Shown here: piece by piece, positions 3,518-56,413 of the stretch
Position numbering within the stretch: position 1 is the stretch's first letter
Layout: each line of letters begins with the position of its first letter
Assembly: GCA_031387975.1 (NCBI GenBank)
Contig: JANNDV010000008.1
Location: forward strand, 1-64,000
Source of the DNA: Acaryochloridaceae cyanobacterium OTE_75_metabat_521
GTDB lineage: Bacteria; Cyanobacteriota; Cyanobacteriia; Thermosynechococcales; Thermosynechococcaceae
Reading direction: 5' to 3'
Length of the DNA: 64,000 nt
Position numbers and translations under genes: made by a program
The notes under the pieces: model-generated
What the model saw: only the letters and a program-made list of their open reading frames with translations
Database searches by the model: none
What the model was told of the DNA's origin: nothing

Positions 3518-3823
3518 TCAGGCTGCTTTTTTATCCACCTCAACCCGAACATTCATTCCTGCACGGGATAGCATCTGAACCAGCTTATCGATACTAAACC
3601 GCTCAATGTCGCCATTCATTAAGTCGCTAATCCGAGGTTGCGTTTCGCCAAAGAACAACGCAGCCTTCTTCTGTGTCCATCCCTGAGCCTTGATAAAACG
3701 CCTAATATTCAAGATCAGGTCAGCCCTGATCTTGAGATTCAATGCTTCCTCTGGCTCAAAGCCTAGATCCTCAAATACATTTTTGCTGCCCTGTGTAACC
3801 TCTAGAGCCTTTGTTTGTATCAT
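3518..3823 (-). CDS. higA: HigA-like antitoxin (XRE-family HTH, addiction module antidote)
   Basis: 101 aa. LKIRADLILNIRRFIKAQGWTQKKAALFFGETQPRISDLMNG is a classic HigA/XRE HTH. It lies immediately downstream of a small toxin-like ORF on the same strand. Confidence 0.75.
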   Translation of the reverse strand: MIQTKALEVTQGSKNVFEDLGFEPEEALNLKIRADLILNIRRFIKAQGWTQKKAALFFGETQPRISDLMNGDIERFSIDKLVQMLSRAGMNVRVEVDKKAA

Positions 3824-3897: not shown

Positions 3898-4173
3898 CTA
3901 GCCTTGAAGTCTTCCGAGTCTTTTTCCCAAATGCATGGAGAACATAAACCGCCTCCTTAAACCGTGCGACATAAAAATTCGATAAGCATCATCAGCCCGA
4001 ATCCGAATTTCCTCAACACCAGAACCCACAATGGACATTGGCTTAAAATCTGAAGGTTCCTCCCCACCCTGAATCAGACGAAGCTGAAACCCCGCCTTAC
4101 GACGAGCAGACTCTGGAAAGTCTGACAAATCTTCAAGAGATGAACTCATCCAACAAATTGGCTTATTGGTCAT
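3898..4173 (-). CDS. higB: HigB-like toxin (RelE/ParE superfamily, phage Gp49-like)
   Basis: 91 aa. The toxin-first arrangement with a downstream HTH antitoxin is typical of HigBA. The motif IRIRADDAYRIF resembles the Gp49/HigB core. The C-terminal tail is atypical and may be degenerate. Confidence 0.55.
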   Translation of the reverse strand: MTNKPICWMSSSLEDLSDFPESARRKAGFQLRLIQGGEEPSDFKPMSIVGSGVEEIRIRADDAYRIFMSHGLRRRFMFSMHLGKRLGRLQG

Positions 4174-19500: not shown

Positions 19501-19573
<73 letters not shown>

Positions 19574-21923: not shown

Positions 21924-22160
21924 TCAATCGGTTCCTAACAATTTAAAAGGGCGCAGCCCAGAACAGACCTATACCCACTGGGGAATTGAAAGATTGCTCT
22001 ACGACTTGGATGCCACAGAATCTTTGAGCAATCGAAGAATCATTTCAGACACAAGCCTTAATGTACCGTGATCGGCTCAAATGTTCTACCGTGAGCCGCT
22101 AGTTTTTAGCAAACGTTAAGTTCATAAGCAACAATTGGGTAAGACACGCTGATTTCTCTC

Positions 22161-22856
22161 TCAATTGCTAACGCTCATTTCTTCAGCACGAGTCCCTTCA
22201 TATCCAAAAAATCTAAGTCCTTTGATCCCTGCTTCCTCAAGCGTTTCTTTAGCAGTAGGTGAGACAAAAAGAGCGGTTGTTGCTCTATCTGTAAGTCTAA
22301 ATATGGGTGGAAATCCACCAACTGGTTCCCTCAAAACAAGCTTTGGAATATAGGTGTAGACAGGATCCTCATTAAATTTAAATTCAGTCCGGTCATAGTC
22401 AATAACATCCAAATGCTCTAAGAGTTGTAAGCCTACATAATCCTCATTAAATTCCCCCATTAGAGGAACTGTTTGTCCCTTTAAGTTATACCTGCCTTGG
22501 TCTAGAAATCTGTAGTCATAAATTCGAGTTGGGATTGCTTTATAGGAAAAACTTCCTACAGAATGCAACGTGTACAGCATCCGCTTGGAAATCAAAGTCC
22601 AACCTAAGTCACATTCGAGGAAGTCAGTTTGATGAAACCGATCAAAAAAACCTAACCACTCGACAGGCTCAGGCTCATCGTAAGGTTTAGAAAAGGTAAG
22701 TTCATCACCAGAAAATCTACTTTGCCTATGAGAATTGTAAATCAACACGTCACAACTCTCTGCTTCGCCGTACTCTCGATCTAGCGGATCTTCAGGTAGT
22801 TCATGAATGCGATCAAGTTGTTGGAAGACTATATAAGCAACAATCGAATCAGTCAT
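22161..22856 (-). CDS. Putative polymorphic-toxin immunity protein, paralog 3 of a tandem array
   Basis: 231 aa. It is paralogous to 22866..23429 and 23658..24371. Shared blocks are IVAY, EDPLDREYGEAE, ISKRMLY.L.S.G.F..K, EFNEDYV.LQLLEH.D.IDYD, LVL.EPVGGFPPIFRL and EEAGIKGL.F. It sits downstream of and co-oriented with the candidate toxin gene. Confidence 0.5.
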   Translation of the reverse strand: MTDSIVAYIVFQQLDRIHELPEDPLDREYGEAESCDVLIYNSHRQSRFSGDELTFSKPYDEPEPVEWLGFFDRFHQTDFLECDLGWTLISKRMLYTLHSVGSFSYKAIPTRIYDYRFLDQGRYNLKGQTVPLMGEFNEDYVGLQLLEHLDVIDYDRTEFKFNEDPVYTYIPKLVLREPVGGFPPIFRLTDRATTALFVSPTAKETLEEAGIKGLRFFGYEGTRAEEMSVSN

Positions 22857-22865
22857 TTTTACCTC

Positions 22866-23429
22866 TTAGCTAGCCGTACTGACTTCTTGAGCGCGGGTGC
22901 CTTCATACTCAGTAAATCTAAGCCCTTTGATACCTGCTTCTTCTAAAGCTTCTTTCGTAGCAGAGGAAACGAATAACGAACCATCTTCACCGATTCTATC
23001 GAGTCTAAAAATCGGTGGAAACCCGCCAACTGGCTCTTTTAAGACAAGATTTATAACGTAGGGGGGCATATTCGGATTTAGGCGGAATCTGAAGTCAGAC
23101 TGGTCGTAATCGATACCATCTACATGTTCTAAAAGCTGCAATCCAACATAGTCTTCATTAAATTCACCTCCAGGTGCAATAGAAGGCCCTTCATAGTCAT
23201 GTTTCCCATAGCTTCCTTTACCTTGGTCTTGAAAGCTATAGTCATAAATCCGGGTAGATATTGCCTTATGGGGAAACTCACCTACAGAGCGCAATACATA
23301 GAGCATTCGTTTAGAAATAATCGGTTCAAAGCCATCGGTGCTCAAGAAATCTGTTTGATGAGGCAAACGATCCAGAAAACCTACAAAGTCAATAGGTTCT
23401 GGCCCAGGATAGGGAATCGTGTCACTCAT
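22866..23429 (-). CDS. Putative immunity protein paralog 2, N-terminally truncated by an upstream in-frame TAG
   Basis: 187 aa. The reading frame continues upstream in-frame to ATG 23583-23585, encoding MSYSIVAYK...EDPLDREYSEAEDYD, the same N-terminal module as paralogs 1 and 3. It is interrupted by TAG at 23436-23438. That stop aligns with a Trp codon in paralog 1, consistent with TGG to TAG. The ORF as called reinitiates two codons downstream. Confidence 0.5.
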   Translation of the reverse strand: MSDTIPYPGPEPIDFVGFLDRLPHQTDFLSTDGFEPIISKRMLYVLRSVGEFPHKAISTRIYDYSFQDQGKGSYGKHDYEGPSIAPGGEFNEDYVGLQLLEHVDGIDYDQSDFRFRLNPNMPPYVINLVLKEPVGGFPPIFRLDRIGEDGSLFVSSATKEALEEAGIKGLRFTEYEGTRAQEVSTAS

Positions 23430-23657
23430 GCCGCCCTAAGACAGACCTCTTGGTCTCGTAGGTTTATGAGTAATCGCATCATAATCTTCCGCCTCACTAT
23501 ACTCTCTATCCAGCGGGTCTTCAGGTAGAGAATCTAGGCGTTCGAGATTATGACCTATTTTGTAAGCAACAATCGAGTAAGACATAATGATCTCTTCTTC
23601 TAAGCAACTTCAGAATGATCTAGAGACTCACCCTGAGCAAGGCTGCCTATTTGATAT

Positions 23658-24371
23658 CTAACTAGCTGTACTGGCTTCTTGAGCGCGAGTGCCTTCGTAC
23701 TCAAGAAAATCGAGTCCTTTGATGCCTGCTTCTTCAAGGGCTTCTTTCGCAGCAGGGGAAACGAATAACGAACCATCTTCACCGATTCTATCGAGTCTAA
23801 AAATAGGTGGAAACCCGCCGACGGGTTCCTTTAAGACAAGACTTGTAACGTAGGGGGGCATATTCGGATTTAGGCGGAATCTGAATTCAGACTGATCGTA
23901 GTCAATGCCATCCACATGTTCTAGAAGCTGCAAACTCACGTAATCTTCATTAAATTCACCCGCTGGTGGAGTCGTATTCCCCTCATAATGATTTTTTCTA
24001 CCTTGATCTTGAAAGCCATAATCATAAATCCGCGTAGAAATTACCTTATGCGGAAACTCACCAAGAGAACGCAGTACGTACAGCATTCGCTTGGAGATGA
24101 TTGGCTTTAAGTCAAGATCATCTACATACAAATAGTCCGTTTGATGAAGTCGCTCATCCAGAAACCCAACAAAATCAATAGGTTCAGGGCCAGGGTAAGG
24201 TATCGTTCCTCTCGTACCGCTCCAAGGAATTTCCTTTGGCTCTGTAGGTTTATAAACCCAGGCATTATATGTTTCTGCTTCGCCATACTCCCTGTCCATT
24301 GGGTCTTCAGCTAGTGAATCTAGAAAGTCAAGACTAGGAGTCATTTTATAGGCAACTATTGGGTAAGACAC
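23658..24371 (-). CDS. Putative immunity protein paralog 1 (full length), translationally coupled to upstream toxin gene
   Basis: 237 aa. The GTG start lies 14 nt after the toxin stop, with AAGGAG in between. It is paralogous to the two downstream genes. Confidence 0.5.
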   Translation of the reverse strand: MSYPIVAYKMTPSLDFLDSLAEDPMDREYGEAETYNAWVYKPTEPKEIPWSGTRGTIPYPGPEPIDFVGFLDERLHQTDYLYVDDLDLKPIISKRMLYVLRSLGEFPHKVISTRIYDYGFQDQGRKNHYEGNTTPPAGEFNEDYVSLQLLEHVDGIDYDQSEFRFRLNPNMPPYVTSLVLKEPVGGFPPIFRLDRIGEDGSLFVSPAAKEALEEAGIKGLDFLEYEGTRAQEASTAS

Positions 24372-24385
24372 GCTGATTTCTCCTT

Positions 24386-26599
24386 TTACGCAACTTCAGA
24401 ATTATCTGAATTCTCGCCCTGAGCAAGACTCCCAGTTGGTCTGGTTATCTTCTTGAGGTCTTTATAAAGCGCTTTATCCTCATTCATTAATCCATCCCTC
24501 ATCCGTGTAAGTGATTCATCCCATACAGCCTTTATTTCCTCCTTCGTCATTTGCGGTATGAATTTTTCATTTTTACCAGAAATCCCTTTTGCCTCTCTAA
24601 TCGCGGTGATTTCATCGTCAACCACTGTCTGCATCAACGCATCAAACTTCTTGTGCTGAGTATTGTGAACAAAATCAGAGAACTGCACATTCCGATGCGC
24701 TTGCCTTGCCGCCTTGAGACTATCGAGACTATTCGCCAACTCAATGAGATTCATTGCATCGTCAGGATTCACCGCACCCAACCGTAACGCCCGCTGCCCA
24801 AAGGGCGTTGAGCGCAGCATATTGTCCGCATACAGGTGATGCACCTGAGAACCCTTTCCCAAAATCTTTCCAGGCTCCCCTGGAATCGTCTCTACATTTT
24901 TGGGATATGCGCCATCATCGACAATGCGATACTCACCCTTCGCCCCCATCTGAATTTTGCCCTTACTATCCACCTTCAAAGGCACCATCGTTTTATCAGA
25001 ACCCGACATATAAACCACCTCTCGAAACGTGCCATCCTTGAGCGGAATCTTGCCATATAGATAGCCCTCCGGCAGGTTATTCGGGTCAACCTTCGTCCCA
25101 ATAAACGACTTCACCGACCCTGCATTGGCATAATCGCCCAGCACATGCTTCTTTGCCTTCGCTGTCTTCAGCGCCTCTTCCGTCGTCATCTGCGCCGTCT
25201 GCCCTCTCATCTCACTACGCGACAGCTTACCAACCCCCACAATCTCCTGAGACGGCCTCAGCACCTCCATCACCTCATCCACCATTGATTGGGGCACCCC
25301 CTTCGCCTTCATCAAAAGTTCTCGCGCCCTCTCCAAACCTGCATCTCCCTGACGCGCCAAACTCATAACCTGCACCCACGTCTGGCGTAACACCTGCGCA
25401 CCTTGCACACTCCCCTGACCCACCAGCCGCTCCAGACCCCGAATTACCCCAACCTCAGCCCCCACATCCAGACCCGCCAGCGCCACATTCGCATAGCCCA
25501 TCACCAAATTAAACCGCGCCTGCTCCAGTGACTGACTTGTGAGCTGCCCTGCACCCCCACGCCCCGACTGTGCCGCCGCATTCAACAGCATCAAATCCGG
25601 TACATCATAGGCAAACGTCGCGCTCATCGTCCCCGCACCCACCATTCGCAGTAATGCAGCACCCCCGCGCAACTGCGGAATAAACGACGCCAGAAATAAC
25701 CCACCCCCAACGGCCTGGCCTAACTGCGACAAGCGCTCCTTATTGCCACGCTCATCCTCTAACCAACTCGTCAGATCCTTGCGTTGTGCTTGGTTATGAC
25801 CTTCCTTCAACAGCTCACTCGTCACCACAGAATCAAACAGCAGCGCTGTCGATGGATCCTTTGTTACCTCAGCGCTAAGCTTGTTGATATTGCCTCGTAT
25901 CCCATCAAACTCTTCGGGCAAACGCCTCTGCACACGCTTAATATCTTCAGGATTCGCCCCCATCTCATTCTTCACCGCAGACAGCGCCGGATACAAATAT
26001 TCGAGCGATACCTGCATCTGTTTGGCAACCGCAATGCGCTCCCCTAGCCGCTTCTTCTGCTCACTCAATGCCAACAGTCGCTTATTTTTAAAGCTGTTTT
26101 GCCTCTCTTGAGGGGTTGCCATTAAACCCATTCCATCTGGGATATCGCTGAGGTTATGAATCTCAGCCGTCGTAAATTCGAGCTGCTGCAGTAAATTCGC
26201 ATGTTGAGCCTGAAACTCACGGCGTTGTGCTGCCACCTGCCAGAGGCGTGACCAGCGATCGCTCTTAGGGTTGTTGTCCTGAAGGTATTGCGTTTGTTCT
26301 GCATTGAGACGGTCTTTGTTGGCCTTCAGCAACCCCTGTGCTCTGGCGGCAACATTGGCTTCAAACTGATGGTGAATCTGTGTTTGGGGCTGTTTACTCT
26401 TCGGTTCTGTCTCAGAAGGCTCGGATTCTTTCGCTTTTGCATCTGCACGCAGTTTCGCCTTTCGCTTTTCTTCTTCGCGAATCTTGGCTTTTCGTTTTTC
26501 TTCTTCTAGACGTAGTTTCTTCTGACGCTCTTGTTCAGCTCGGATTTTGAGTTGACGTTCTTGTTCTTCGCGACGTGCTTTCTGCGGGTCTACAAACAT
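24386..26599 (-). CDS. Candidate polymorphic toxin: KR/E-rich coiled-coil N-terminus, Gly/Ala-rich central region, C-terminal xHH-type (HNH/EndoVII-like) nuclease-like domain
   Basis: 737 aa. The C-terminal ~150 aa contain GSQVHHLYADN and a downstream HNTQHKK motif. Both motifs are shared with the orphan toxin fragment at 32736..33800. Three paralogous small genes follow on the same strand, and a copy of this gene's last ~50 nt reappears within that array. Confidence 0.5.
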   Translation of the reverse strand: MFVDPQKARREEQERQLKIRAEQERQKKLRLEEEKRKAKIREEEKRKAKLRADAKAKESEPSETEPKSKQPQTQIHHQFEANVAARAQGLLKANKDRLNAEQTQYLQDNNPKSDRWSRLWQVAAQRREFQAQHANLLQQLEFTTAEIHNLSDIPDGMGLMATPQERQNSFKNKRLLALSEQKKRLGERIAVAKQMQVSLEYLYPALSAVKNEMGANPEDIKRVQRRLPEEFDGIRGNINKLSAEVTKDPSTALLFDSVVTSELLKEGHNQAQRKDLTSWLEDERGNKERLSQLGQAVGGGLFLASFIPQLRGGAALLRMVGAGTMSATFAYDVPDLMLLNAAAQSGRGGAGQLTSQSLEQARFNLVMGYANVALAGLDVGAEVGVIRGLERLVGQGSVQGAQVLRQTWVQVMSLARQGDAGLERARELLMKAKGVPQSMVDEVMEVLRPSQEIVGVGKLSRSEMRGQTAQMTTEEALKTAKAKKHVLGDYANAGSVKSFIGTKVDPNNLPEGYLYGKIPLKDGTFREVVYMSGSDKTMVPLKVDSKGKIQMGAKGEYRIVDDGAYPKNVETIPGEPGKILGKGSQVHHLYADNMLRSTPFGQRALRLGAVNPDDAMNLIELANSLDSLKAARQAHRNVQFSDFVHNTQHKKFDALMQTVVDDEITAIREAKGISGKNEKFIPQMTKEEIKAVWDESLTRMRDGLMNEDKALYKDLKKITRPTGSLAQGENSDNSEVA

Positions 26600-26868
26600 C
26601 GTGCCAGCCTTAGTCTGTCGTCAACCGTTTATGATTTGGAAAATTAGCCCCATTTTAGTCCTACTCTCCTCGAAAAGCTTAGCGCCTTTAGTTTTATTTT
26701 TTAAGGGGGGTGCGCTATTTTCCTGGCATCCTCTGTTACTGTCAAAATCTGAATGTGTAATTGCTGCAACGGTTCAGTCCGAATACATAAGGTTCAGCGC
26801 TAAGCTTAGGATCTCAAACTGTAGCTTCAAATGAGCATTTTCCTTCACGTCTCTTTCCTTTAGGTGCC

Positions 26869-29287: not shown

Positions 29288-30196
29288 CTAACGTCTAGCT
29301 TGAGCCGCAGCGGGTGCCGTTATGATTGAGCGCCCAATGGGAAGAATGCGATCGCCGTCAGAAGCCACTGTCGTGCCGTCACGATTGACTGCTACAAGGG
29401 CAGTATTTTGCTCCCCTAAGATAGCAGTGCGAAATAGAATCTGATCGGGATTGCGATGACTCCAGCCCAGCAGAATTGCGGTGTCATAGTCTTGTGGGAC
29501 TGGCGCAACGGTTTTGAACTGCTGGGTGTTTCGATTCCAGACGAGGGCGTAGTCTGAAGAGACGTCTGACCCAAAGACGGCCTCAAACTGTCGAGCCAAA
29601 AGCTGCTGTCCGTCTTTAGACCAAGTGGCAGGCATCAGAATACTCAGGGTGCCGATGGCTGCGGTGCCTGAAGTTTCTTTTACCATTCCATCTCCTAAAT
29701 GCATGGAGGAGGCGATGTTCTGGACCTCAGCGCCCTTTGCATTGGTAATAATGAGATGACTCACCACACGACTTTGTGTCACCACTGGATGCAGCTCAAG
29801 GCTAATCTCTGAATGTGCGTTTCGTTGACCATCTGGAGAGGCGATCACCCCGCTGATAGACCGTAGTGTGATCACTTTTCCGGTCTGAGTCGCCTGAGTC
29901 TGGTTCTGCCAGATCATGCCCCAAGGGATAGGGTAGGCACTCTGGAGTGGATCTTGCGCTTGCGTTGCAGGAGCTGCTTGAGATGAATTTCGCACCGGAG
30001 CAGTGCGTGAAACTGGCGATGAGACTGGGGGTGCAGATTGAATCAGCGAGAGGGGCGTCACTAAAGACTGCGACCTTGCTGGGAACTGCATTAAGCCTTG
30101 CAGTCCTGATGTCAAAAGAATAGAAGCCGCTAAAAATCCACACACAAACTGGGGACAGCGTCCCCACTGAAGCAGCACGACGCGAGGCGAAATCAT
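29288..30196 (-). CDS. Hypothetical secreted protein
   Basis: 302 aa with an N-terminal signal/TM. No assignable family. Confidence 0.4.
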   Translation of the reverse strand: MISPRVVLLQWGRCPQFVCGFLAASILLTSGLQGLMQFPARSQSLVTPLSLIQSAPPVSSPVSRTAPVRNSSQAAPATQAQDPLQSAYPIPWGMIWQNQTQATQTGKVITLRSISGVIASPDGQRNAHSEISLELHPVVTQSRVVSHLIITNAKGAEVQNIASSMHLGDGMVKETSGTAAIGTLSILMPATWSKDGQQLLARQFEAVFGSDVSSDYALVWNRNTQQFKTVAPVPQDYDTAILLGWSHRNPDQILFRTAILGEQNTALVAVNRDGTTVASDGDRILPIGRSIITAPAAAQARR

Positions 30197-30452
30197 GGTG
30201 AAGTCTCAAATGAAGTGTCGCGCTTGGGAGACCTGTTGCAAAGGCCAACGCGCTCTATATCCGGTATAGCAATCCTGAGAGGGAAACGCAATGGTTAATG
30301 GCACTCGTTCACGAGATTTAATTTAGCTGTATAAATCCGTCACAAATCTACGTGTAAATGAGAGACCATCCAGGACGGATATCTCTCCAGTTTTGGGGCA
30401 ATTCCATCGGTTTTCTGGGACAATCTAAACCAAGGGAGAACCGTACAATAAA

Positions 30453-30497
30453 GGCAACCCCATCAGGCAGCCCCATCAGGCAACCCCATCAGGCAAC
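30453..30497. repeat. Tandem 13-bp repeat, 3.5 copies (GGCARCCCCATCA)
   Basis: ggcaaccccatca ggcagccccatca ggcaaccccatca ggcaac is read directly from the sequence. It is intergenic, ~90 nt upstream of the 30587 ORF. Confidence 0.7.
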
Positions 30498-30586
30498 AAT
30501 TTCCTTTTCGCTCTCGTCAAGTTAGCGATAAAGCCTTTCTGATTAAGAACTCTCATTAAGAATTTTTTCTTACCCCCATACCTCCT

Positions 30587-31084
30587 ATGTTCAGTCGTCT
30601 TTCTCAATGGGTTACAGTCAGCCTTCTGGTTTCTGGCACGGCGACAGGATTATTTGCTGCCGCTCCAGCAAGGGCTGAACTAGAGCAGGGGACAACTTTA
30701 GTGCTAGCTGCTCCGGCTCAAAATGTAGATATGCGAGGCTATGTGAAAGGAGCAGTGGCGCTTTTTAAGACCGTGGGCGATCGCGACAGTAATCAAAAGC
30801 GCTGCATGGGCTACGGATCTTTGACCCCAGACCACACGCTGCAAGTTTCGCAAAAAACGTCTCAGGTGACGCTTCAAGTTAGAAGCAAACAGCAGCAAGA
30901 CACAACGCTAGTGGTCGAAGGGCCAGACAATCGGCTGTACTGCTCCGATGATTCTTCTCAGGGCGGCAAAGAAGCAAGGCTGGTGCTAACAGACCTTAAA
31001 GCTGGAAACTATCGGGTCTGGATTGGCGCTTTTGAGCCAGGCGCAGGATTCCGATACACTCTTAATGTTAAATCTCAACCCTAA
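30587..31084 (+). CDS. Hypothetical secreted protein
   Basis: 165 aa. Signal peptide (LLVSGTATGLFAAAPARA). No family. Confidence 0.4.
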   Translation: MFSRLSQWVTVSLLVSGTATGLFAAAPARAELEQGTTLVLAAPAQNVDMRGYVKGAVALFKTVGDRDSNQKRCMGYGSLTPDHTLQVSQKTSQVTLQVRSKQQQDTTLVVEGPDNRLYCSDDSSQGGKEARLVLTDLKAGNYRVWIGAFEPGAGFRYTLNVKSQP

Positions 31085-31358
31085 GGTTTTCGGGATTCTC
31101 GATGATTTAGAACATCAACCCATATTCCAGTAACAATAGTTCGAGCAGAATTTTGGCAGGTTCTGAGGCTCAAACTTTTATCCAGCAATAAGCAGGATTT
31201 TTTGTCAGAGCTTTGTAAACCCATTCAGAAAACTGTCTATGGTATTGCCATAAGGATTTCAATGGAACGGATAATCACGATATCCTTATGTTGCAAGTTC
31301 GTCCGCTAACACGCAATTCGTCAAAAAAATAATATTTCTAAAGAAGAGATATTTAAAA

Positions 31359-32015
31359 ATGAGTGTTAAGTATAACTTTACGGGCTTAAAAAATATCTAT
31401 TTAGAGGCTCTCATACGAGCTGACCCAACATTAGTATTTGAGATAGTGCAAGGGCGTGGTCGATTTGTTTTTATGATGTTTTTCTCTAGCGAAGATAAAG
31501 AATCAAAAGATAGATTGTTCATTCAATTGAGGAATACAAAGGTATTCTTAGAGCTGAAGGTGTATGGCAGTCACAGAAACGGTGACTTCCTAATTTATTT
31601 GGATGACAGTAATCAACAAAAAATCATTAATGAGTTGCAGCTTGAAAAAAGTGGAGAAGGATTTTTCTTTGACAACTTTTTGTCACAATTGAATCAGCAA
31701 ATTCCAATTAAGCTAACTCTTCAAACCAAATTAGTGAAGGTTAGGGAAGTCTGGCCAGAAGTGGGACATCGCTTGAGTAGCGTAGTTGATGAAGCAGACA
31801 AAAATATCTTAATGGGTATCAAGAAATTACCGGAGGGCAAGAAACCTCAGGATAAAACCCTCAGAAAGCTATATATTTACACTAATGGTCATGCTGATGT
31901 CATTACGAATCTGATTTCTTCACTCAAAGCTGCAAGAGTAACCCTAGCATGGACTCATAGGCAAGATGTTGCAGAAAAAAGTCTCTCAGAGATCATGGCT
32001 ATGATAAATTCTTGA
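31359..32015 (+). CDS. Hypothetical protein in AT-rich island
   Basis: 218 aa. Its AT-rich composition contrasts with the flanking chromosome. No family. Confidence 0.35.
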   Translation: MSVKYNFTGLKNIYLEALIRADPTLVFEIVQGRGRFVFMMFFSSEDKESKDRLFIQLRNTKVFLELKVYGSHRNGDFLIYLDDSNQQKIINELQLEKSGEGFFFDNFLSQLNQQIPIKLTLQTKLVKVREVWPEVGHRLSSVVDEADKNILMGIKKLPEGKKPQDKTLRKLYIYTNGHADVITNLISSLKAARVTLAWTHRQDVAEKSLSEIMAMINS

Positions 32016-32200
32016 CACTATGTTAAATTTTTCAAAACTTAGGTCTAATAACCCCACTAAGGGCTGCTCAAAATACCTTGCCATTTAGTCTATTTGATAT
32101 TTTTACTAACGCTCTTTATGACGGATCGTTAATCTAGTCTCTTTTCTAACTCAACTTCATATCTATTCTTTGTCTGTATTTTCTTGACTTCTTTTATACT

Positions 32201-32734
32201 TCAAAAGAAGGCTTCTAACCCAAGCTCTTTCGCTGAATCTTTTGCACTCGGTACTGATTGTACATATCTTTCAACAGCAGCAGCCATGTATTCCTCGGAA
32301 GGCCAATACCCTTCGACAAAAGTAACAATTGATTCTGCTACTTCAATTCCTGATTCTTCGTCTAACTTTGGACCTGTAGAAATCTTAAGTACATGACTAA
32401 TAAAAGTGTCATCTCTAATATCAAGATGTGGATCATTTTCCAGCATCCAGCTAAAAAGACGTTCCCAACTTAGACTAAGAAGATCTATATTCTGATATTT
32501 ATCTTTGTAAATTAATTCTGAGTCACTAATTTCTATGGCAAGGCATATTTCGGTGTTAGTATTATAGTCTATACGAAGCCTACTGAAATCATAGTAATCT
32601 GACAAATATAAATTGTCTGAATAAGAAGACTTTGGTTCTCCAAATATAGATATGACTTCCTGGCGAGCCATTCCTAATTTGATTAGTCCTACTCCTTTGC
32701 CTAATTCAATTTCATATCTATTTTTTGCTTGCAT
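32201..32734 (-). CDS. Putative immunity protein of degenerate toxin module
   Basis: The ATG at 32732-32734 lies 1 nt after the stop of the upstream toxin-like ORF, with AAGGAG 8 nt upstream, as in the 24.4-kb locus. A truncated paralogous N-terminus (QTKNRYEVELEKRLD*) lies just downstream at ~32150-32200. The ORF track's longer version (to 32800) overlaps the toxin ORF. Confidence 0.4.
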   Translation of the reverse strand: MQAKNRYEIELGKGVGLIKLGMARQEVISIFGEPKSSYSDNLYLSDYYDFSRLRIDYNTNTEICLAIEISDSELIYKDKYQNIDLLSLSWERLFSWMLENDPHLDIRDDTFISHVLKISTGPKLDEESGIEVAESIVTFVEGYWPSEEYMAAAVERYVQSVPSAKDSAKELGLEAFF

Positions 32735-32735
32735 T

Positions 32736-33800
32736 TTATTGACTCCTTCTATATTTTTTGAGCATTTGTCGAATTGAAATATCGTACAAGCCTGGAGCAA
32801 CTCTATTTACATCTTTTATATCCTCGATGATTGCTTCATCTGTCTTGCCATGATCTATCAATGATTTCTGGTTGGCGCGATAACGAACAGCTCTAGGGCC
32901 TCTTCCATTGCTGGCAGTTTCCTTATGATGTTCGGTATACATCCAAATTGCAGAACCTTGAGCCGTCGGAAGCAGATTCACAGAGTCTGCTGGCATGTGA
33001 TGCACCTGACCGCCTACCGTATTGGCTCTCACCTCGCCATGCGTCCCACCCAGTTTTGCCTCAATAATTTTTATTCCTGGAGGAGCATTCACTAGACCGT
33101 TATTCACCCACTGCACTAAATCCGCATCCGGTATGGCTACCCTCATGCCATACCCGCACTGATTGGCAATAATTGACTGTCGCTCTCACTCTGGAAGTTT
33201 GCCTTTAATAAACTTTTGCGCTTTGGCCTCTTCCACCTTGCTTGATGGCGGCATAATCGGCTCAACTTCATACACCTGCTTTTTTAGCCCTTGGTGCTTT
33301 TTCTCGTCTCCGCGATACATTCCGTCGAATAAGGCGGAATGACCGTTTGGGTCAACAATTAAGGTTGGGTTATCGGATCCGGTTAGAGCTTTCACTATCA
33401 TCGATTTAGGTTGTCCACCATTGCCAATCCCCAACTGCATGACCGTACAGAAGCGATCATTTCTGAAACTGCCATCGGCGTATTTGAGTGCTTCTTTATG
33501 CTTACTGTTCTCTAGTCCTTTAATTTGTTCTGCCGTCAAATTCTTGAATGCTTTTTTCTCAGCTTCGCTGCCGATGGTTTCGCCCGTTAGGGGATTCTTA
33601 CCCATCTTCTGCATGTTGTAAATTTTCTTAAAATCCTCTTGGGTCATCCAAGGAATTTTAGGGATAGGAAAGGGAAAGGGAAGACCGCGCGGAATCGGAA
33701 CAGCCTGGGCAATCTGTTGAGGTTTAGCTTTTGGAATTTGCTTATGAAAGTCATTGTTACGATTGTTATCTGGGCGTTTGCCGGAATCGAAAACCATCAC
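32736..33800 (-). pseudogene. Orphan toxin C-terminal module of the same xHH family as 24386..26599, interrupted by an in-frame TGA
   Basis: ORFs 33186..33800 and 32736..33146 are in the same frame, separated only by TGA at 33186-33188 (…KGKLPE*ERQSII…). The downstream part contains GGQVHHMPADS and TEHHKET. These are homologous to GSQVHHLYADN and HNTQHKK of the 737-aa protein. There is no long N-terminal delivery region. Confidence 0.5.
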
Positions 33801-50657: not shown

Positions 50658-53399
50658 CTAAAGATAATCTTTAACTTTTTGAGCCGCAATCATCATGAGC
50701 AACATAATGCCGATAAACGAACTGAAGATCAGTAAATGAGTCGTGATGTTGACATCAAAAGCTTGCCCAAATTTCTCTCTAATCCCATTAATATTACCTT
50801 CGGCTTCGCTAATCGCTCTGCTATTGTTTACACTCCAATCCGTATAGACCTTACTCCATTTTTTGCTATCGTCTGGGTATTTCTCTATATCTTTCTTGTA
50901 AGCAATCTGCTCTTCAGCAGTAGCATTTTCAGGGCGCGTTGGCTGCACAGGCTGTATTGGTTCTGGTTCGTCAATTGCAGCATTCTTAAATGCTCTTACT
51001 CCGGCAAAATTACACTGCTTAAATACATTTGTTCCCATGCAGTTGCAGTCTTTTTTATCCTCTTTGGTCAGAGCATCCCGTTCTTTTTTGGTTTCTAAAG
51101 CCCAACAACTTTTCTTGGCTGGATCTTTTCCGGTATCTCTAGCAACGTCTCTCCCAAAGGCTGTTAAAGTTACAAGGGTTTCAAAAGGCCATTTAGTAAG
51201 AGATGTATTGTTCAATAAAATTCCGGGTGGCCCAAAGGTTTGGATGGGCAGAACACCACCGCCAAACAAGATCTGAGGAATCAGGAGCATCAGCACCAGC
51301 ATCGGCGCAACGCTTTGATTGGGTGAAATCGCTGAACCCAACAGACCCATCATCATGCCGCTTAGGGTTGCTAAGGTGAGGGTTAAAAACATTCCACCAA
51401 TAAAGGCTGGGGTATGCGGTAGGTCGATGGCGAGATTTTTGAATAAGACGAAAATGATGCCTTGATAGATTGATAAAATCACCGCAACCCAGACTTTAGA
51501 AAAGACGTAGGGCGCAATTTGAAGACCAATCATTCGCTCTCGTTTATAGATATCCATCTCTTTGACGATCTCACGCATCATGGAGACGCTGCCCACCATG
51601 AGCGTGAGCAGAACGGAGGTAAATAACATCGAAATAGTCAGGCTGGGGTTGCCCTTATTAATGTCGAGCAGGGTGCTCGGCCATGCCACTTTATCCAATA
51701 ACCCCAGCATGGGCGCTACCGCCAGCATCAGCATGAGACTAATGCGATCCCGCGATAAAATCGCAAGATTTCGCTGAGACAAAATCATAAACTGTCGCCA
51801 GCTAGAGGTGCGCTTAACCTTTGCCCCAGACTCTACTTTGCGCTGACGTTTTTTATCTTTGAGATTATCACCTTTGACGTTCAGGGACTGCTGGCGGCTG
51901 ACGATATATTTTTGGTAATAGGGAGACTGAAGATATTTGTTCCGCCATTCCTCAGGCGATCGCTCATTTTCAACCTTTTTGTAAATATCATCAAATCCCT
52001 CCACCCCAAAATATTTAAGGGCTTCCTGGGGCGGCCCAAAGAAGGCCAAATTCCCCCCAGGAGCCATGAAGACCACTTGGTCGCAGAGTTTCACGTTTGT
52101 AGTGGCATGGGTAATCAGCAAAACGGTACGGCCTTGATCCGCCAGAACCCGTAACAGCTCCATGAGATCTTTCTCGGTGCCAGGGTCTAATCCAGAAGTG
52201 GCTTCATCTAGAAAGAACAGACTGGGTTTGGTCAGTAGCTCTACGCCAATGGAAACCCGCTTAAGCTGACCGCCGCTCAACTTCTTAATCTGGACATCCC
52301 GTCGCACCGTGAGGTTTAGCTCACCCATCACCTCTTCAACCCGCTGATGGCGTTCGGCACGGGTGGTGTCCATCGGCATGCGCAGCTTGGCCGCATACTG
52401 AAGCGACTCTTCGACGGTTAACTCCATGTGAACAATGTCCTTTTGGGGGACATAGCCAATCTCAGTCCGGTAGGCGTTGAAGTTTTTGTACAGATCGATG
52501 CCATTGACATAGACTGAACCGCTGGTGGCAGGCCGGAACCCACTGATGGCGTCCATTAACGTTGACTTACCGCCGCCGCTCACCCCTGCGATCGCCACAA
52601 ATTCTCTCGGCTGAATCGAGAGCGAAATATCGTTAAGTAAATTGAGTCCCTTTGCCACCACCTTATTGATACGTAGGGCATCAATGCGAAGGTTGCCTTC
52701 CTCATTGGTTTTGACAAGGGTTTCATCTACATTAAAGGCAAGCTGCGTTGAACCAATCCGAATCGTGTCTCCCACTTTAAGCGCATGGCTACCTGCCACT
52801 AGCTCACCATTGAGAAAGGTTCCGTTTGTGGAGTTGAGATCGTACAGAACGTAGTTTCCTTGTTCCAGCTTAATTTGGCTGTGGAACCGTGAAGACGAGG
52901 GGTGATTGATCACCAAATCATTCGTCGCGTCGCGTCCAATATTAAGAAGGTTGCGTCCCCGCAGATTCATGCGCTGAGAAGACTCCAGCGCTTGGACGGG
53001 GAACGCATTAAACGGCAACACAACCGTTTTGTCAGAAGGCGGCAAATTATTGGGGGCTGGAGGCGCTGACACGGGAACGGCAGCCTCCGTTGCCTTAAAC
53101 GCAAACTGACAGACAGACCCAATTAAGATCTGGTCTCCATCTTTAAGTGGGTGTGGAATATACGCCTGAATGCGCTGGTTATTTAAGTAAGTGCCATCGG
53201 AACTGCCAACATCCGTTAAAAGGTAAACGCCATTCCCTAGGGCAACTTGGGCATGATGTCGAGATACCGTCAGGTCATCGCTAAGACAGAGAAGGTTATC
53301 GGGCGCACGCCCAATGGTGACAATGGTTTCATTCAGCCATAGATCTTGAAAAAACTGACCTTCGCTGTGAATGACAAGTTTGGCATTGGTTTGGGACAT
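50658..53399 (-). CDS. FHA-FHA-ABC(G-type) transporter: two N-terminal FHA domains, NBD, C-terminal ABC-2-like TMD with Cys-rich extracytoplasmic insert
   Basis: 913 aa. FHA-like TIGRAPDNLLCLSDDLTVSRHHAQV...SDGTYLNNQRI and IGRDATNDLVINHPSSSRFHSQIKL...NGTFLNGELV. NBD motifs GVSGGGKSTL and LSGGQLKRVSIGVELL, with Walker B FLDEATSGLD. The membrane domain carries CNCMGTNVFKQC. Confidence 0.8.
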   Translation of the reverse strand: MSQTNAKLVIHSEGQFFQDLWLNETIVTIGRAPDNLLCLSDDLTVSRHHAQVALGNGVYLLTDVGSSDGTYLNNQRIQAYIPHPLKDGDQILIGSVCQFAFKATEAAVPVSAPPAPNNLPPSDKTVVLPFNAFPVQALESSQRMNLRGRNLLNIGRDATNDLVINHPSSSRFHSQIKLEQGNYVLYDLNSTNGTFLNGELVAGSHALKVGDTIRIGSTQLAFNVDETLVKTNEEGNLRIDALRINKVVAKGLNLLNDISLSIQPREFVAIAGVSGGGKSTLMDAISGFRPATSGSVYVNGIDLYKNFNAYRTEIGYVPQKDIVHMELTVEESLQYAAKLRMPMDTTRAERHQRVEEVMGELNLTVRRDVQIKKLSGGQLKRVSIGVELLTKPSLFFLDEATSGLDPGTEKDLMELLRVLADQGRTVLLITHATTNVKLCDQVVFMAPGGNLAFFGPPQEALKYFGVEGFDDIYKKVENERSPEEWRNKYLQSPYYQKYIVSRQQSLNVKGDNLKDKKRQRKVESGAKVKRTSSWRQFMILSQRNLAILSRDRISLMLMLAVAPMLGLLDKVAWPSTLLDINKGNPSLTISMLFTSVLLTLMVGSVSMMREIVKEMDIYKRERMIGLQIAPYVFSKVWVAVILSIYQGIIFVLFKNLAIDLPHTPAFIGGMFLTLTLATLSGMMMGLLGSAISPNQSVAPMLVLMLLIPQILFGGGVLPIQTFGPPGILLNNTSLTKWPFETLVTLTAFGRDVARDTGKDPAKKSCWALETKKERDALTKEDKKDCNCMGTNVFKQCNFAGVRAFKNAAIDEPEPIQPVQPTRPENATAEEQIAYKKDIEKYPDDSKKWSKVYTDWSVNNSRAISEAEGNINGIREKFGQAFDVNITTHLLIFSSFIGIMLLMMIAAQKVKDYL

Positions 53400-53656: not shown

Positions 53657-56413
53657 ATGACGTCTAGCCTAGCCCGTTTGCAAATCTTGTCAGATTCTGG
53701 TGATGATCAGCGTCAAATACCGCTACATCCCCAGAGCGTTACCTTAGGCCGTGGCTACGATAATCACTTAGTGATTAATGAAACCTTTGTCTCTCGCTAC
53801 CATGCCCGTATTGACCGAGGCGAAAACGGATACACCATTATCGACCTGGGTAGCGCCAACGGCACTAAGGTGAATGACCAAAACATTACGCCCCAGGTGC
53901 CGCTACCGCTAAATCATGGCGATCGCATCGAGATTGGCGGCCTAAAAGTCTCTTTTTTAGTCAACGAAGCTACTGCCATCGCGCCCAGCGATTTAACGTC
54001 TCAACGGACTGTCCTGGCACCGACAGACATGGATTCGAGGCTAAAGTTAGGCGTACCGCCTGAAACGCTGTCATTAAGGGGGCGCGATAGCTTTACGATG
54101 GGTCGTGATCCTAAAAACGATCTCTCTATTCCCCATCCCATCGTCTCTCGTTTCCATGTCCGTATTCATCGGCGAGATGGTGCATTTATTATTACTGACC
54201 TCAACTCCAGTAACGGCACCTTCGTCAACGGTAAAGCGGTCAAAGGCTCGGTTGCCCTACGCCCCAACGATACGATTCAGGTGGGTCCTTGCAGCCTTGT
54301 TCTCAACCTCAACGAAACACTGACGCAGAATTTTGAAGAAGGCAATCTGCGGCTAGACGGCGTTCGACTGGGTAAGGTGGTGGGCAAAAATGTGAAACTG
54401 CTCAATGATGTTTCGCTCTCCATTTTGCCCCGAGAATTTGTGGCGCTGCTTGGCTCTAGTGGGAGTGGTAAATCAACGCTTCTAGACGCTTTGAATGGGC
54501 TTAGACCCGCTACTTCGGGTCAGGTACTCGTGAATGGCATGGATTTGTACAAAAACTTCCAAGTTTTTGCCACCCAAATGGGCTACGTGCCTCAGCAAAA
54601 TATCATCCATGCCGATCTCACGGTCGAACAGGCCATGTCTTTTGCGGCCCAGATGCGGATGCCGTCAGACACCACCCCCGCCGAACGTCAGCAGCGCATC
54701 CATGAGGTTTTGGATGACGTTGGGCTGTCTCACCGACGTAAGGTGCAAATTAAGCTCCTGAGTGGCGGTCAGCAGCGGCGGGTTTCGATTGGTGTGGAGC
54801 TGCTCAATAAGCCCAGCCTTTTCTTTTTGGATGAGGCTACCTCTGGGCTAGACCCTGGCACCGAGGCAGACATGATGGTGCTGTTGCGACAGTTGGCCGA
54901 CCAGGGGCGCACTATTCTGCTGATTACCCACGCCACCCAAAATATTCGGCAGTGCGATCTGGTGCTGTACCTGGCGGAGGGGGGGCGGATGGCCTACTTT
55001 GGCCCACCGGACAAAATCCTAGAATACTTCCGACATTACTTCCCCAAGGAATGCGAAGGGTTTGGGCTAGATGATTTCTCTGGCATTTATCGCTTTCTAG
55101 ACCCAGAGAAAAATCCTCAGGCTCCATCGGCAGAGCGCCTAGAGCAGCAGTTCCGCGACTCGCCGCTGTACCAACAGTATGTGGTTGAGCGTCAGCGCGA
55201 AGTGTTGCCCAATGCAGAAGAACGCTCTGCGAAAGTTGGCCGCAGGGCTGGCGGTAAGGCTGGCGGCAAAAGCAAGGTTCAAAATCGGATTTCGGGTTGG
55301 CGACAGTTCAGAATTTTGTCTTCGCGCAATTTGGCGGTGTTGGCAAAGGATAAGGCGACGCTGGCGCTCATGTTTGCGATCGCCCCGCTCCTCGGCATGC
55401 TGGACTTTATCACCTGGAAGTCTGACCTTTTCAGTGTTCAAAACGGCAGCGCTACCCAGTCCACTACCATGCTCTTTGTCAGCGCCCTGATTGCGGTGAT
55501 GATTGGCGAAATTACGACCATGAATGAGCTGGTCAAGGAAGATGAAATCTACCGTCGGGAACGACTGTATGGACTCAAGGTCGTGCCTTATATTTTGTCA
55601 AAGGTGTGGATTGCCTTTTTGTTTTCGGTGTATCAAGGGGCGGCGTACCTGCTCGTCAAGATGATTGCGGTGCAGTTCCCGGGTGGTTGGGAGGTGCTAT
55701 TCCATTTTTACCTAGACTTCACCATTGCCATTATGGCAGGGGCAATGCTGGGGCTGTTGGTGTCGGCAATCGCCCCCAACCAAAGCATGTCTCCGTTACT
55801 CATGATTATGGTGCTGGTGCCCCAGATTATCTTTAGCGGTGGCATCCAGCCCGCCAGCAACTTTGGGCCACCGGGTCAGCTCCTCAACCGAGTCAATGTG
55901 ATCAAATGGCCCTTTGAGCTGCTGGTGACGCATTCCGGCTTAGGGCAAGATGTGGCGAAAGATCCCTGTCTCAAAAAGACAACCGATGAGCGCGAAAAAT
56001 TTACGGCGGCAGAGTTAGAGCAATGTCAGTGCATTGGACCAAACGTCTTTAAAAGCTGCCGTTTTCCAGGCATCTTAACCAAATATGTGCCTGAAATTGA
56101 TCAGACCGAACCGTTACAGCCAAAGCTAGCGAAGCCCCCCAGCGATCCATCACCGGAGGCTCAACTCGCCTCTCAAAAAAAGGCAGCGATATTTCAGGTC
56201 AAGCTTAAAGCGTGGCAAAAAGACTATCAAACCTGGCAGCAAAAACGCCAAAAAGCCATCAGCGAAGCCGAAGGGGTCATCACCAAAACTTACGATGAAT
56301 TGGGCTATCTCTTTAACATCAATCCATTAGCTCACTTTGCCACTCAGGGGCTACTCATCCTCAGCATTCTGATTGCGCTGCCGTTTGTGCAAAAGCGCAA
56401 AGACGCAGTGTAA
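53657..56413 (+). CDS. FHA-FHA-ABC(G-type) transporter, divergent paralog of 50658..53399
   Basis: 918 aa with the same architecture. FHA: LGRGYDNHLVINETFVSRYHARI...NGTKVNDQNI and MGRDPKNDLSIPHPIVSRFHVRI...NGTFVNGKAV. NBD: GSSGSGKSTL and LSGGQQRRVSIGVELL. The TMD carries CQCIGPNVFKSC. It is divergently transcribed from its paralog across a ~260-bp intergenic region. Confidence 0.8.
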   Translation: MTSSLARLQILSDSGDDQRQIPLHPQSVTLGRGYDNHLVINETFVSRYHARIDRGENGYTIIDLGSANGTKVNDQNITPQVPLPLNHGDRIEIGGLKVSFLVNEATAIAPSDLTSQRTVLAPTDMDSRLKLGVPPETLSLRGRDSFTMGRDPKNDLSIPHPIVSRFHVRIHRRDGAFIITDLNSSNGTFVNGKAVKGSVALRPNDTIQVGPCSLVLNLNETLTQNFEEGNLRLDGVRLGKVVGKNVKLLNDVSLSILPREFVALLGSSGSGKSTLLDALNGLRPATSGQVLVNGMDLYKNFQVFATQMGYVPQQNIIHADLTVEQAMSFAAQMRMPSDTTPAERQQRIHEVLDDVGLSHRRKVQIKLLSGGQQRRVSIGVELLNKPSLFFLDEATSGLDPGTEADMMVLLRQLADQGRTILLITHATQNIRQCDLVLYLAEGGRMAYFGPPDKILEYFRHYFPKECEGFGLDDFSGIYRFLDPEKNPQAPSAERLEQQFRDSPLYQQYVVERQREVLPNAEERSAKVGRRAGGKAGGKSKVQNRISGWRQFRILSSRNLAVLAKDKATLALMFAIAPLLGMLDFITWKSDLFSVQNGSATQSTTMLFVSALIAVMIGEITTMNELVKEDEIYRRERLYGLKVVPYILSKVWIAFLFSVYQGAAYLLVKMIAVQFPGGWEVLFHFYLDFTIAIMAGAMLGLLVSAIAPNQSMSPLLMIMVLVPQIIFSGGIQPASNFGPPGQLLNRVNVIKWPFELLVTHSGLGQDVAKDPCLKKTTDEREKFTAAELEQCQCIGPNVFKSCRFPGILTKYVPEIDQTEPLQPKLAKPPSDPSPEAQLASQKKAAIFQVKLKAWQKDYQTWQQKRQKAISEAEGVITKTYDELGYLFNINPLAHFATQGLLILSILIALPFVQKRKDAV

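Follow-up and report, generated by a model that had tools for sequence, protein, structure and literature searches.

An inserted polymorphic-toxin island with a predicted AHH nuclease toxin and an Imm11 immunity array in a cyanobacterium of the Acaryochloridaceae

The first 64,000 nucleotides (nt) of contig JANNDV010000008.1 from Acaryochloridaceae cyanobacterium OTE_75_metabat_521 (GenBank assembly GCA_031387975.1; this whole stretch is called the window below) contain a compact locus on the minus strand, in which the gene of a large protein of 737 amino acids (aa; 24386..26599) is followed by three small paralogous open reading frames (ORFs). The most probable explanation of this locus, to which a probability of roughly 0.75 is assigned, is a horizontally acquired polymorphic-toxin island that encodes an exported toxin with a nuclease of the AHH family together with an array of Imm11 immunity genes. 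The toxin would be composed of a short N-terminal motif with a charged and probably disordered stretch, a helical Gly-rich core of ~390 aa, a junction, and an exchangeable killing module, and after export it would kill related cyanobacteria which do not possess the matching Imm11 protein. An initial annotation, made from the DNA letters and their translations, had already described these genes as a toxin with three immunity copies; the observation is confirmed and its interpretation is largely right.

Polymorphism of the toxin family and the killing module

The ORF listing gives all four minus-strand ORFs exactly where they had been reported: in addition to the toxin gene these are imm1 (23658..24371, 237 aa, GTG start), the downstream ORF portion of imm2 (22866..23429, 187 aa), and imm3 (22161..22856, 231 aa), which is a divergent Imm11 paralogue. 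The locus is not a product of chance, since every ORF has a Pfam match above the curated cut-off and the large protein has homologues with E-values down to 0.

The word-indexed search identified 30 such relatives of the large protein. They keep residues ~75-460, while their C-termini diverge after the E.VGV(G/P) junction at aa ~455-480 and belong to AHH (two subtypes), EndoU, CdiA-CT RNase A-like, and WHH with colicin-DNase toxin types; the C-terminus of one further relative was recorded as PF26324, which the present Pfam search did not recover. An exhaustive search with the profile of the trimmed core resulted in 168 cluster representatives among 1.84 billion, and the 56 long family members added ART, Ntox47, and PT-HINT with GIY-YIG to the set of C-termini, along with single Pfam matches to C39 peptidase and LysM at an unspecified position in the protein.

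The downstream genes vary together with the toxin type. The WHH toxin is followed by SUKH and then Imm11, the GIY-YIG toxin by Imm26, and the AHH toxin of the window's own type by one to three Imm11 genes of the “MSYPIVAY” type; the minimal unit of a toxin and one Imm11 gene was found at another genomic location. Each of the two AHH subtypes is matched by its own Imm11 subtype, and these two Imm11 subtypes are just 33–38% identical to each other, whereas immunity proteins within the subtype of the window are 53–80% identical. The order of toxin and then Imm11 is also present in relatives L001, L004, L088, and L092. Thus, the locus belongs to a genuine polymorphic toxin system with a shared N-terminal part of ~460 aa, a swapped C-terminal toxin, and a co-varying immunity gene. 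As a separate observation, the P0012-type AHH toxin (L001/L002, 12762-15639) is followed by a mixed array of Imm11, Imm11, DUF1963, and a short Imm11 of 139 aa, which represents a heterogeneous polyimmunity locus.

In the window toxin the C-terminal module occupies aa ~480-737 (24389..25162, minus strand), as delimited by homologue divergence and AlphaFold modelling, and consists of a beta-rich subdomain, the AHH nuclease core which it precedes, and a helical tail. The AlphaFold model of this module has a predicted local distance difference test score (pLDDT) of 86 and a predicted template modelling score (pTM) of 0.84. A C-terminal toxin module had been anticipated in the initial annotation; its existence stands and it is now assigned to the AHH nuclease family, but its size is ~260 aa rather than ~150. 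The two His-containing motifs indicated there were both found, GSQVHHLYADN at aa 583-593 and HNTQHKK at aa 645-651. The Pfam AHH profile (PF14412) matches aa 581-667 (24599..24859, minus strand) with 25.1 bits against the gathering threshold of 22.3 (E = 1.8e-5), and both closer and more distant relatives have much better AHH E-values, down to 3.5e-12. The signature residues of the toxin are H587-H588, D592, D613, N617, H645, and H649, where H588, D592, D613, N617, H645, and H649 are invariant when the toxin is aligned with 16 AHH-type relatives. In the Zhang et al. 2012 study (PMC3482391) the Tox-AHH signature was defined as [AG]HH, N, H, and H, which the toxin fits with V586-H587-H588, N617, H645, and H649, the first position being V.

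The killing module would be a metal-dependent DNase from the AHH branch of the HNH/EndoVII superfamily using H587/H588, N617, H645, and H649, and nuclease activity of the toxin C-terminus is a prediction from sequence. Searches for the beta-beta-alpha-metal (His-Me finger) fold with the model of the module recovered no nucleases, the PDB search by sequence gave nothing meaningful for the toxin C-terminus or imm1, and NCBIfam gave sub-threshold noise only (5'-3' exonuclease, SMC). In the exact-sequence look-up the window toxin and its homologue P0014 were both without a record. AHH is the sole Pfam match of the large protein, and Pfam and NCBIfam have no match N-terminal of aa 581; the LXG, Rhs, CdiA, PAAR, and MafB architectures were rejected as none was found by Pfam, in agreement with what had been noticed from the sequence alone.

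The extreme C-terminus is also conserved among the AHH toxins of this clade beyond the nuclease core, in the form …SLAQG..D.SEVA-COOH, while the other AHH subtype ends with …LSEG.SDPDFVA. This comparison covered window positions 24389-24433 and 23600-23648 and the homologues P0002, P0003, P0007, P0010, P0012, and P0014. The conserved tail may act as a tag for recognition, make contact with the immunity protein, or be constrained by the start of the coupled imm gene.

The Imm11 array and insertion of the island

All three small proteins match Imm11/DUF1629 (PF07791) above the Pfam threshold of 22.1 bits, with scores of 32.2 for imm1, 34.3 for the 187-aa part of imm2, and 33.5 for imm3, and the Imm11/DUF1629 family that had been offered as a guess is therefore the right one. 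The blocks LVLKEPVGGFPPIFRL and EFNEDYVGLQLLEH, described earlier as strongly conserved, are present in the small proteins. The designation of three immunity-like paralogues holds with one correction: all three are Imm11, but the 187-aa ORF represents just the downstream portion of an interrupted gene. The full imm2 gene has 239 codons (22866..23585, minus strand) with an in-frame TAG at 23436-23438; its true start is the ATG at 23585 (MSYSIVAYK…), and the 187-aa ORF restarts at the internal ATG at 23429.

The junction between toxin and imm1 reads in the DNA as had been reported, with the stop codon TAA, the 14-nt Shine-Dalgarno-like spacer AAGGAGAAATCAGC (24372..24385, minus strand), and then GTG. 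The imm1 product is 78% identical to the single immunity protein encoded behind P0002, the closest toxin (77% identical). Probably imm1 is the cognate immunity gene, for which the co-variation of AHH and Imm11 subtypes is the best available evidence. It is translationally coupled to the toxin, and its product would most likely bind the nuclease and block it inside the producing cell. For neutralisation of the window toxin by Imm11, which is a prediction, this co-variation is indirect support. In the Zhang et al. 2012 study (PMC3482391) Imm11 was described as the Tox-AHH partner, which occurs in cyanobacteria and forms homogeneous polyimmunity loci.

The history of the array can be partly read from its remains. 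Upstream of imm2, between imm1 and imm2, lies a 48-nt remnant of the toxin 3' end (23600..23648, minus strand), in which …SLAQGESLDHSEVA copies the last 15 codons of the toxin (…SLAQGENSDNSEVA), and which is located inside the direct repeat D2 with a spacing of 786 nt. Since this remnant is present, the unit from which the array was built included the 3' end of the toxin gene. Directly after imm3 there is also a 38-nt stub of a fourth immunity gene (22121..22158, minus strand; repeat family D6), which consists of a spacer resembling a ribosome-binding site, GTG, and ~8 codons (SYPIVAYE) and is 92% identical to the ribosome-binding site and start region of imm1 (24345-24382); it is cut off at the right edge of the island, so that the right junction falls inside it. 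The imm3 protein is 54–56% identical to imm1 and imm2. Synonymous divergence (dS) between the paralogues extends from 0.84 to saturation and the ratio of nonsynonymous to synonymous divergence (dN/dS) is 0.10–0.27, or 0.10–0.17 when imm3 is compared with the other copies, which marks them as old duplicates under purifying selection. Such old and constrained copies fit a maintained polyimmunity array and do not fit recent local duplication, which was rejected at these dS values. The broken imm2 and the old paralogue imm3 would most likely serve in protection against related toxins of neighbouring strains.

The locus is an inserted and probably horizontally acquired island of ~4.67 kb (22121..26788), as defined by comparison with empty sites. 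The UPF0014 (FetB-like) and DegT genes, which flank it, are 208–492 nt apart in six related Thermosynechococcaceae/Acaryochloridaceae genomes and 4945 nt apart here, and DNA homology to the empty UPF0014-DegT site of relatives L008-L011 breaks off at ~26789 and begins again at 22120. The DegT-type aminotransferase beside the island has counterparts in a Thermosynechococcaceae metagenome-assembled genome (MAG; 95% protein identity), in “Thermosynechococcus sp. WC_1” (94%), in an Acaryochloridaceae MAG (89%), and in Altericista sp. CCNU0014 (82%). Alignment of the junctions with the empty sites shows an imperfect 12-nt direct repeat, with the left copy CTGAACCGTTGC at 26766..26777 and the right copy CTTAACGTTTGC at 22109..22120 (both given for the minus strand), the latter being continuous with the flank, and at the empty sites a single copy is present (CTTAACGGTTAC or CTTAACGTTTGC); this repeat could, as a weak suggestion, be a target-site duplication or a microhomology. 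The guanine-cytosine (GC) content is 46.7% in the island, 42.5% in the imm array, 51.4% in the toxin gene, and 49.4% in the whole window.

Relatives of the cassette are located at unrelated chromosomal sites, two of them in contexts resembling mobile elements (ParE, ParA, and integrase in L005; ParB and methylase in L092). The promoter-like sequence TTGACA-17-GAAAAT (26717..26745, minus strand), located within the island ~118 nt before the toxin ATG, matches the consensus in 10 of 12 positions and is the best promoter match in the region, with the number of such sites not above the shuffled expectation. No RNA family was found by Rfam in the 20-29 kb interval. A tRNA-Phe gene (19501-19573, plus strand) is situated 2.5 kb from the right edge of the island, with the AI-2E transporter and DegT genes between them; a tRNA-linked island was rejected at this distance, and the tRNA gene is not the integration site.

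Other parts of the window contain several separate features. A HigB/HigA-like pair is located at 3518-3823 and 3898-4173, both on the minus strand, with matches to Gp49/DUF891 (E = 1.7e-8) and HTH_37 (E = 4.6e-24). A low-GC patch at ~29288-33800 (36–38% versus ~50%, lowest at 31.0-33.0 kb) includes six ORFs of 136–302 aa, none with a Pfam match at E <= 0.01, and may be a second acquired segment. Two divergent genes of ~915 aa (50658-53399, minus strand; 53657-56413, plus strand) probably encode FHA-domain ABC transporters, which is concluded from a Pfam census of this third of the window (FHA, 3 members; ABC_tran, 2; ABC2_membrane, 2; Yop-YscD_cpl, 2) rather than from the individual ORFs.

N-terminal region, conserved core, and possible delivery route

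The large protein has neither a signal peptide nor, by Pfam, a recognisable secretion domain, as had been stated from the beginning, and both its export and the export route are inferences. The N-terminal ~72 aa (26384..26599, minus strand) comprise the start motif MFVDPQKAR (26573-26599) and a low-complexity K/R/E-rich stretch; over the first ~72–75 aa 55% of residues are charged (K/R/D/E). The assignment of the toxin start is backed by the homologue P0014, whose N-terminus MEYIDPQKARQ corresponds to MFVDPQKARRE of the window protein. Recurrent start motifs were also recognised in the family members without the DUF4157 domain, namely, MEFADPQKRP, MDFAEQxRKP, MxxKDFARGE, and MVYANQGPQ (the compared set included P0003-P0005, P0007, P0010, P0013, P0016, P0017, P0024-P0026, P0032, P0041, P0049, P0051-P0054, P0056, and P0068). 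These motif classes have an aromatic residue at position 2-6 and are followed by low-complexity and probably disordered sequence, and such motifs were found in none of the DUF4157-bearing members. By its composition and recurrence the N-terminal motif with the charged stretch is a candidate export or loading signal.

The conserved core at aa ~75-460 (25220..26377, minus strand), delimited by the conservation profile, consists of a long-helix bundle, a Gly/Ala-rich segment, and more helices. Its AlphaFold model is all-helical with pLDDT 69 and low confidence at aa 288-353. The Gly/Ala-rich, moderately hydrophobic segment (aa ~288-400) holds AAQSGRGG and ARFNLVMGYANVALAGLDVG; classical transmembrane helices were rejected, as its maximum 19-residue hydropathy is 1.28. 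Sequence, profile, and fold comparisons of the core with Pfam, PHROG, and PDB gave no match, and the Foldseek search of PDB with its model returned generic helical bundles only, with no E-value below 0.8. No relatives of the core were found in GTDB representative genomes, IMG/VR viral contigs, and JGI metagenome_contigs (scanned twice), or by tblastn in PLSDB plasmids and INPHARED phages.

The main clue to delivery comes from more distant relatives. The PF13699 domain (eCIS_core/DUF4157, “PVC-metallopeptidase”) is present in 16 of the 56 long family members and is always N-terminal to the core. The core profile aligns with 17 DUF4157-bearing proteins over more than 300 positions (E = 1e-27 to 1e-8), including the YPAL, AAQAGxGG, and ARFN…LAGLDVG motifs, and one of these relatives has the order DUF4157-core-AHH followed by Imm11. 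DUF4157 is a published marker of extracellular contractile-injection-system cargo (PMC8213781; PMC3482391). A published cargo study demonstrated loading by way of a disordered, system-specific N-terminal sequence, DUF4157 being dispensable (bioRxiv 10.64898/2026.05.27.728243), and Tme of Streptomyces davawensis was characterized as a cargo composed of DUF4157, coiled-coil, hydrophobic, and C-terminal endonuclease parts (PMC11126660).

The DUF4157-bearing relative P0064 (1400 aa, contig L094) is encoded ~8 kb from Tail_P2_I and Baseplate_J-like genes. In this contig (1-3327 and 10001-14203) P0064 lies downstream of a Tail_P2_I ORF (E = 6.5e-11) and weak Baseplate_J ORFs, from which it is separated by genes for a DDE transposase and a protein kinase; the tail genes may represent the 3' end of a contractile-injection-system cluster.

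Because the same core sits downstream of the cargo marker DUF4157 in distant relatives, an injection-system route is proposed, in which the toxin would be loaded into a phage-tail-like contractile injection system through its N-terminal region. Delivery as a cargo of this kind is the least certain step of the whole explanation and is put forward tentatively. Another suggestion, itself doubtful, is that the N-terminal motif (M-x-[FY]-[AVI]-[DNE]-x-Q-[KR]-like), the stretch after it, and the ~390-aa core form a trafficking module of cyanobacterial polymorphic toxins that has not been described before and acts either as a DUF4157-independent injection-system address or as a self-contained route with no relation to the secretion systems catalogued so far. 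With such a module the AAQAGRGG…ARFNLVMGY…LAGLDVG segment of the core would carry the nuclease across the target membrane.

Several observations weigh against the AHH/Imm11 island with injection-system delivery. The AHH score of the toxin is just 2.8 bits over the cut-off and the first residue of the motif is V instead of A or G, while the Imm11 matches are limited to positions ~100-192 of the 194 in the model, its C-terminal half. As for delivery, neither Pfam nor a local DUF4157 model finds this domain in the window toxin or anywhere in its close clade; the 64-kb window contains no sheath, tube, baseplate, DUF4157, or other secretion genes; no injection or secretion genes adjoin five DUF4157-less relatives; and the core has no similarity to phage tape-measure families in PHROGs. 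A Tme-like tape-measure relationship of the core has no support from HMMER, as none of the PHROG families, tape-measure or other, matches it.

Alternative explanations and relation to known systems

Nuclease colicins and pyocins have a disordered N-terminus, long helices, a C-terminal HNH-type DNase, and a linked immunity gene, and the general plan of the window toxin mirrors them. The main rival to injection-system delivery, although an unlikely one, is therefore a diffusible bacteriocin similar to colicins and S-type pyocins, which would be released by lysis or by an unlinked exporter and would enter the targets on its own; the N-terminus would then be a translocation domain, the helical core a receptor-binding or membrane-crossing domain, and Imm11 a colicin-type immunity protein. 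The absence of a linked secretion apparatus in every DUF4157-less context examined suits this explanation, as do the swappable C-termini, one of which is a colicin-DNase domain in a relative, and the Gly/Ala-rich segment, which could act on membranes. However, Pfam finds neither a translocation nor a receptor domain of colicins or pyocins, the island has no lysis gene and no additional ORF, the sole structural resemblance, to the colicin translocation domain 7nna, has a non-significant E-value of 2, and the hydropathy values given above leave the core without a classical transmembrane helix. In addition, homology of the core to the part that follows DUF4157 in toxins of the injection-system type points away from a diffusible bacteriocin. 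The likeness to colicins E7/E9 and S-type pyocins is thus one of plan, in the C-terminal HNH-superfamily DNase, linked immunity gene, modular N-terminus, and swapped killing domains, while the locus differs from them in having no translocation or receptor domains, no lysis gene, an Imm11 protein that does not belong to the Im family, and a core related to DUF4157 toxins.

Considerably more improbable is a toxin-antitoxin (addiction) or abortive-infection module that is not exported, in which the nuclease would be freed from Imm11 by stress or phage and which would persist since its loss kills the cell. The missing signal peptide and secretion domain, the translational coupling of toxin and antidote genes, and the mobility of the island, with different sites and contexts resembling mobile elements in L005 and L092, could be understood in this way. 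On the other hand, a conserved non-catalytic N-terminus of ~460 aa with swappable toxins is a hallmark of exported polymorphic toxins (PMC3482391), diverged immunity arrays under purifying selection suit incoming foreign toxins and not self-addiction, and experimental work on AHH/Imm11 pairs has shown delivery from cell to cell (PMC12077181). Finally, a structural or housekeeping coiled-coil protein with a spurious AHH match and small genes of unrelated function is strongly disfavoured and hardly credible: the near-threshold AHH score and the fold searches without nucleases are outweighed by the rarity of the family, the absence of the locus from the closest relatives with the empty site intact, the far better AHH scores of relatives with invariant catalytic residues, the unrelated toxin domains at the same position in other relatives, and the Imm11 identity of all three small proteins.

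The AHH toxin with its Imm11 array has its nearest studied counterparts in Myxococcus xanthus DK1622, where type VI effectors and SitA5 lipoprotein toxins form AHH/Imm11 pairs of the same toxin and immunity Pfam families. In this bacterium imm11 is always located behind an AHH toxin gene, one or two additional copies are frequent, and cross-protection between diverged Imm11 proteins was demonstrated experimentally at 46% identity (PMC12077181). However, the Myxococcus toxins reach their targets through type VI secretion or outer-membrane exchange and carry the matching N-terminal modules, none of which is present in the toxin described here; the host is a Thermosynechococcaceae/Acaryochloridaceae cyanobacterium and the N-terminal 460 aa of its toxin are an unnamed module.

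The homogeneous polyimmunity loci of Zhang et al. 2012 likewise have tandem diverged copies of one immunity family beside a polymorphic toxin. In comparison with them the array in the island is small (two intact genes, one with a stop codon, and one stub), and its toxin 3'-end remnant reveals how it was built. Among the PVC-metallopeptidase/DUF4157 toxins (Zhang 2012; Geller 2021; Tme; Cgo1/Cgo2 of AlgoCIS) a DUF4157 domain is combined with a variable toxin, as in the distant relatives of the core, and Tme and the published cargo model share with the window toxin the general plan of a disordered N-terminus (in the window toxin a probably disordered one), a linker or coiled-coil with hydrophobic stretches, and a C-terminal nuclease. 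Unlike this cargo the window toxin and its close clade have no DUF4157, no injection genes in the window, and no tape-measure similarity, and while many PVC-type toxins have no immunity genes (PMC3482391) an array is present here.

The AHH/Imm11 pair itself belongs to textbook interbacterial warfare, and the toxin and immunity part of the island adds just a new member to it. The new part is trafficking: the family is rare and compact, and its unnamed conserved core, common to DUF4157-type cargo, is combined here with a different N-terminal address. To our knowledge very little is known about the delivery of polymorphic toxins in cyanobacteria, since type VI and type VII secretion are lacking there. 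The locus also provides a clean natural comparison, as close relatives have flanking genes ~95% identical at the protein level and an empty site between them. Should the N-terminus turn out to serve in loading or export, this would help to explain how contractile injection systems select their cargo and could find use in engineered protein delivery.

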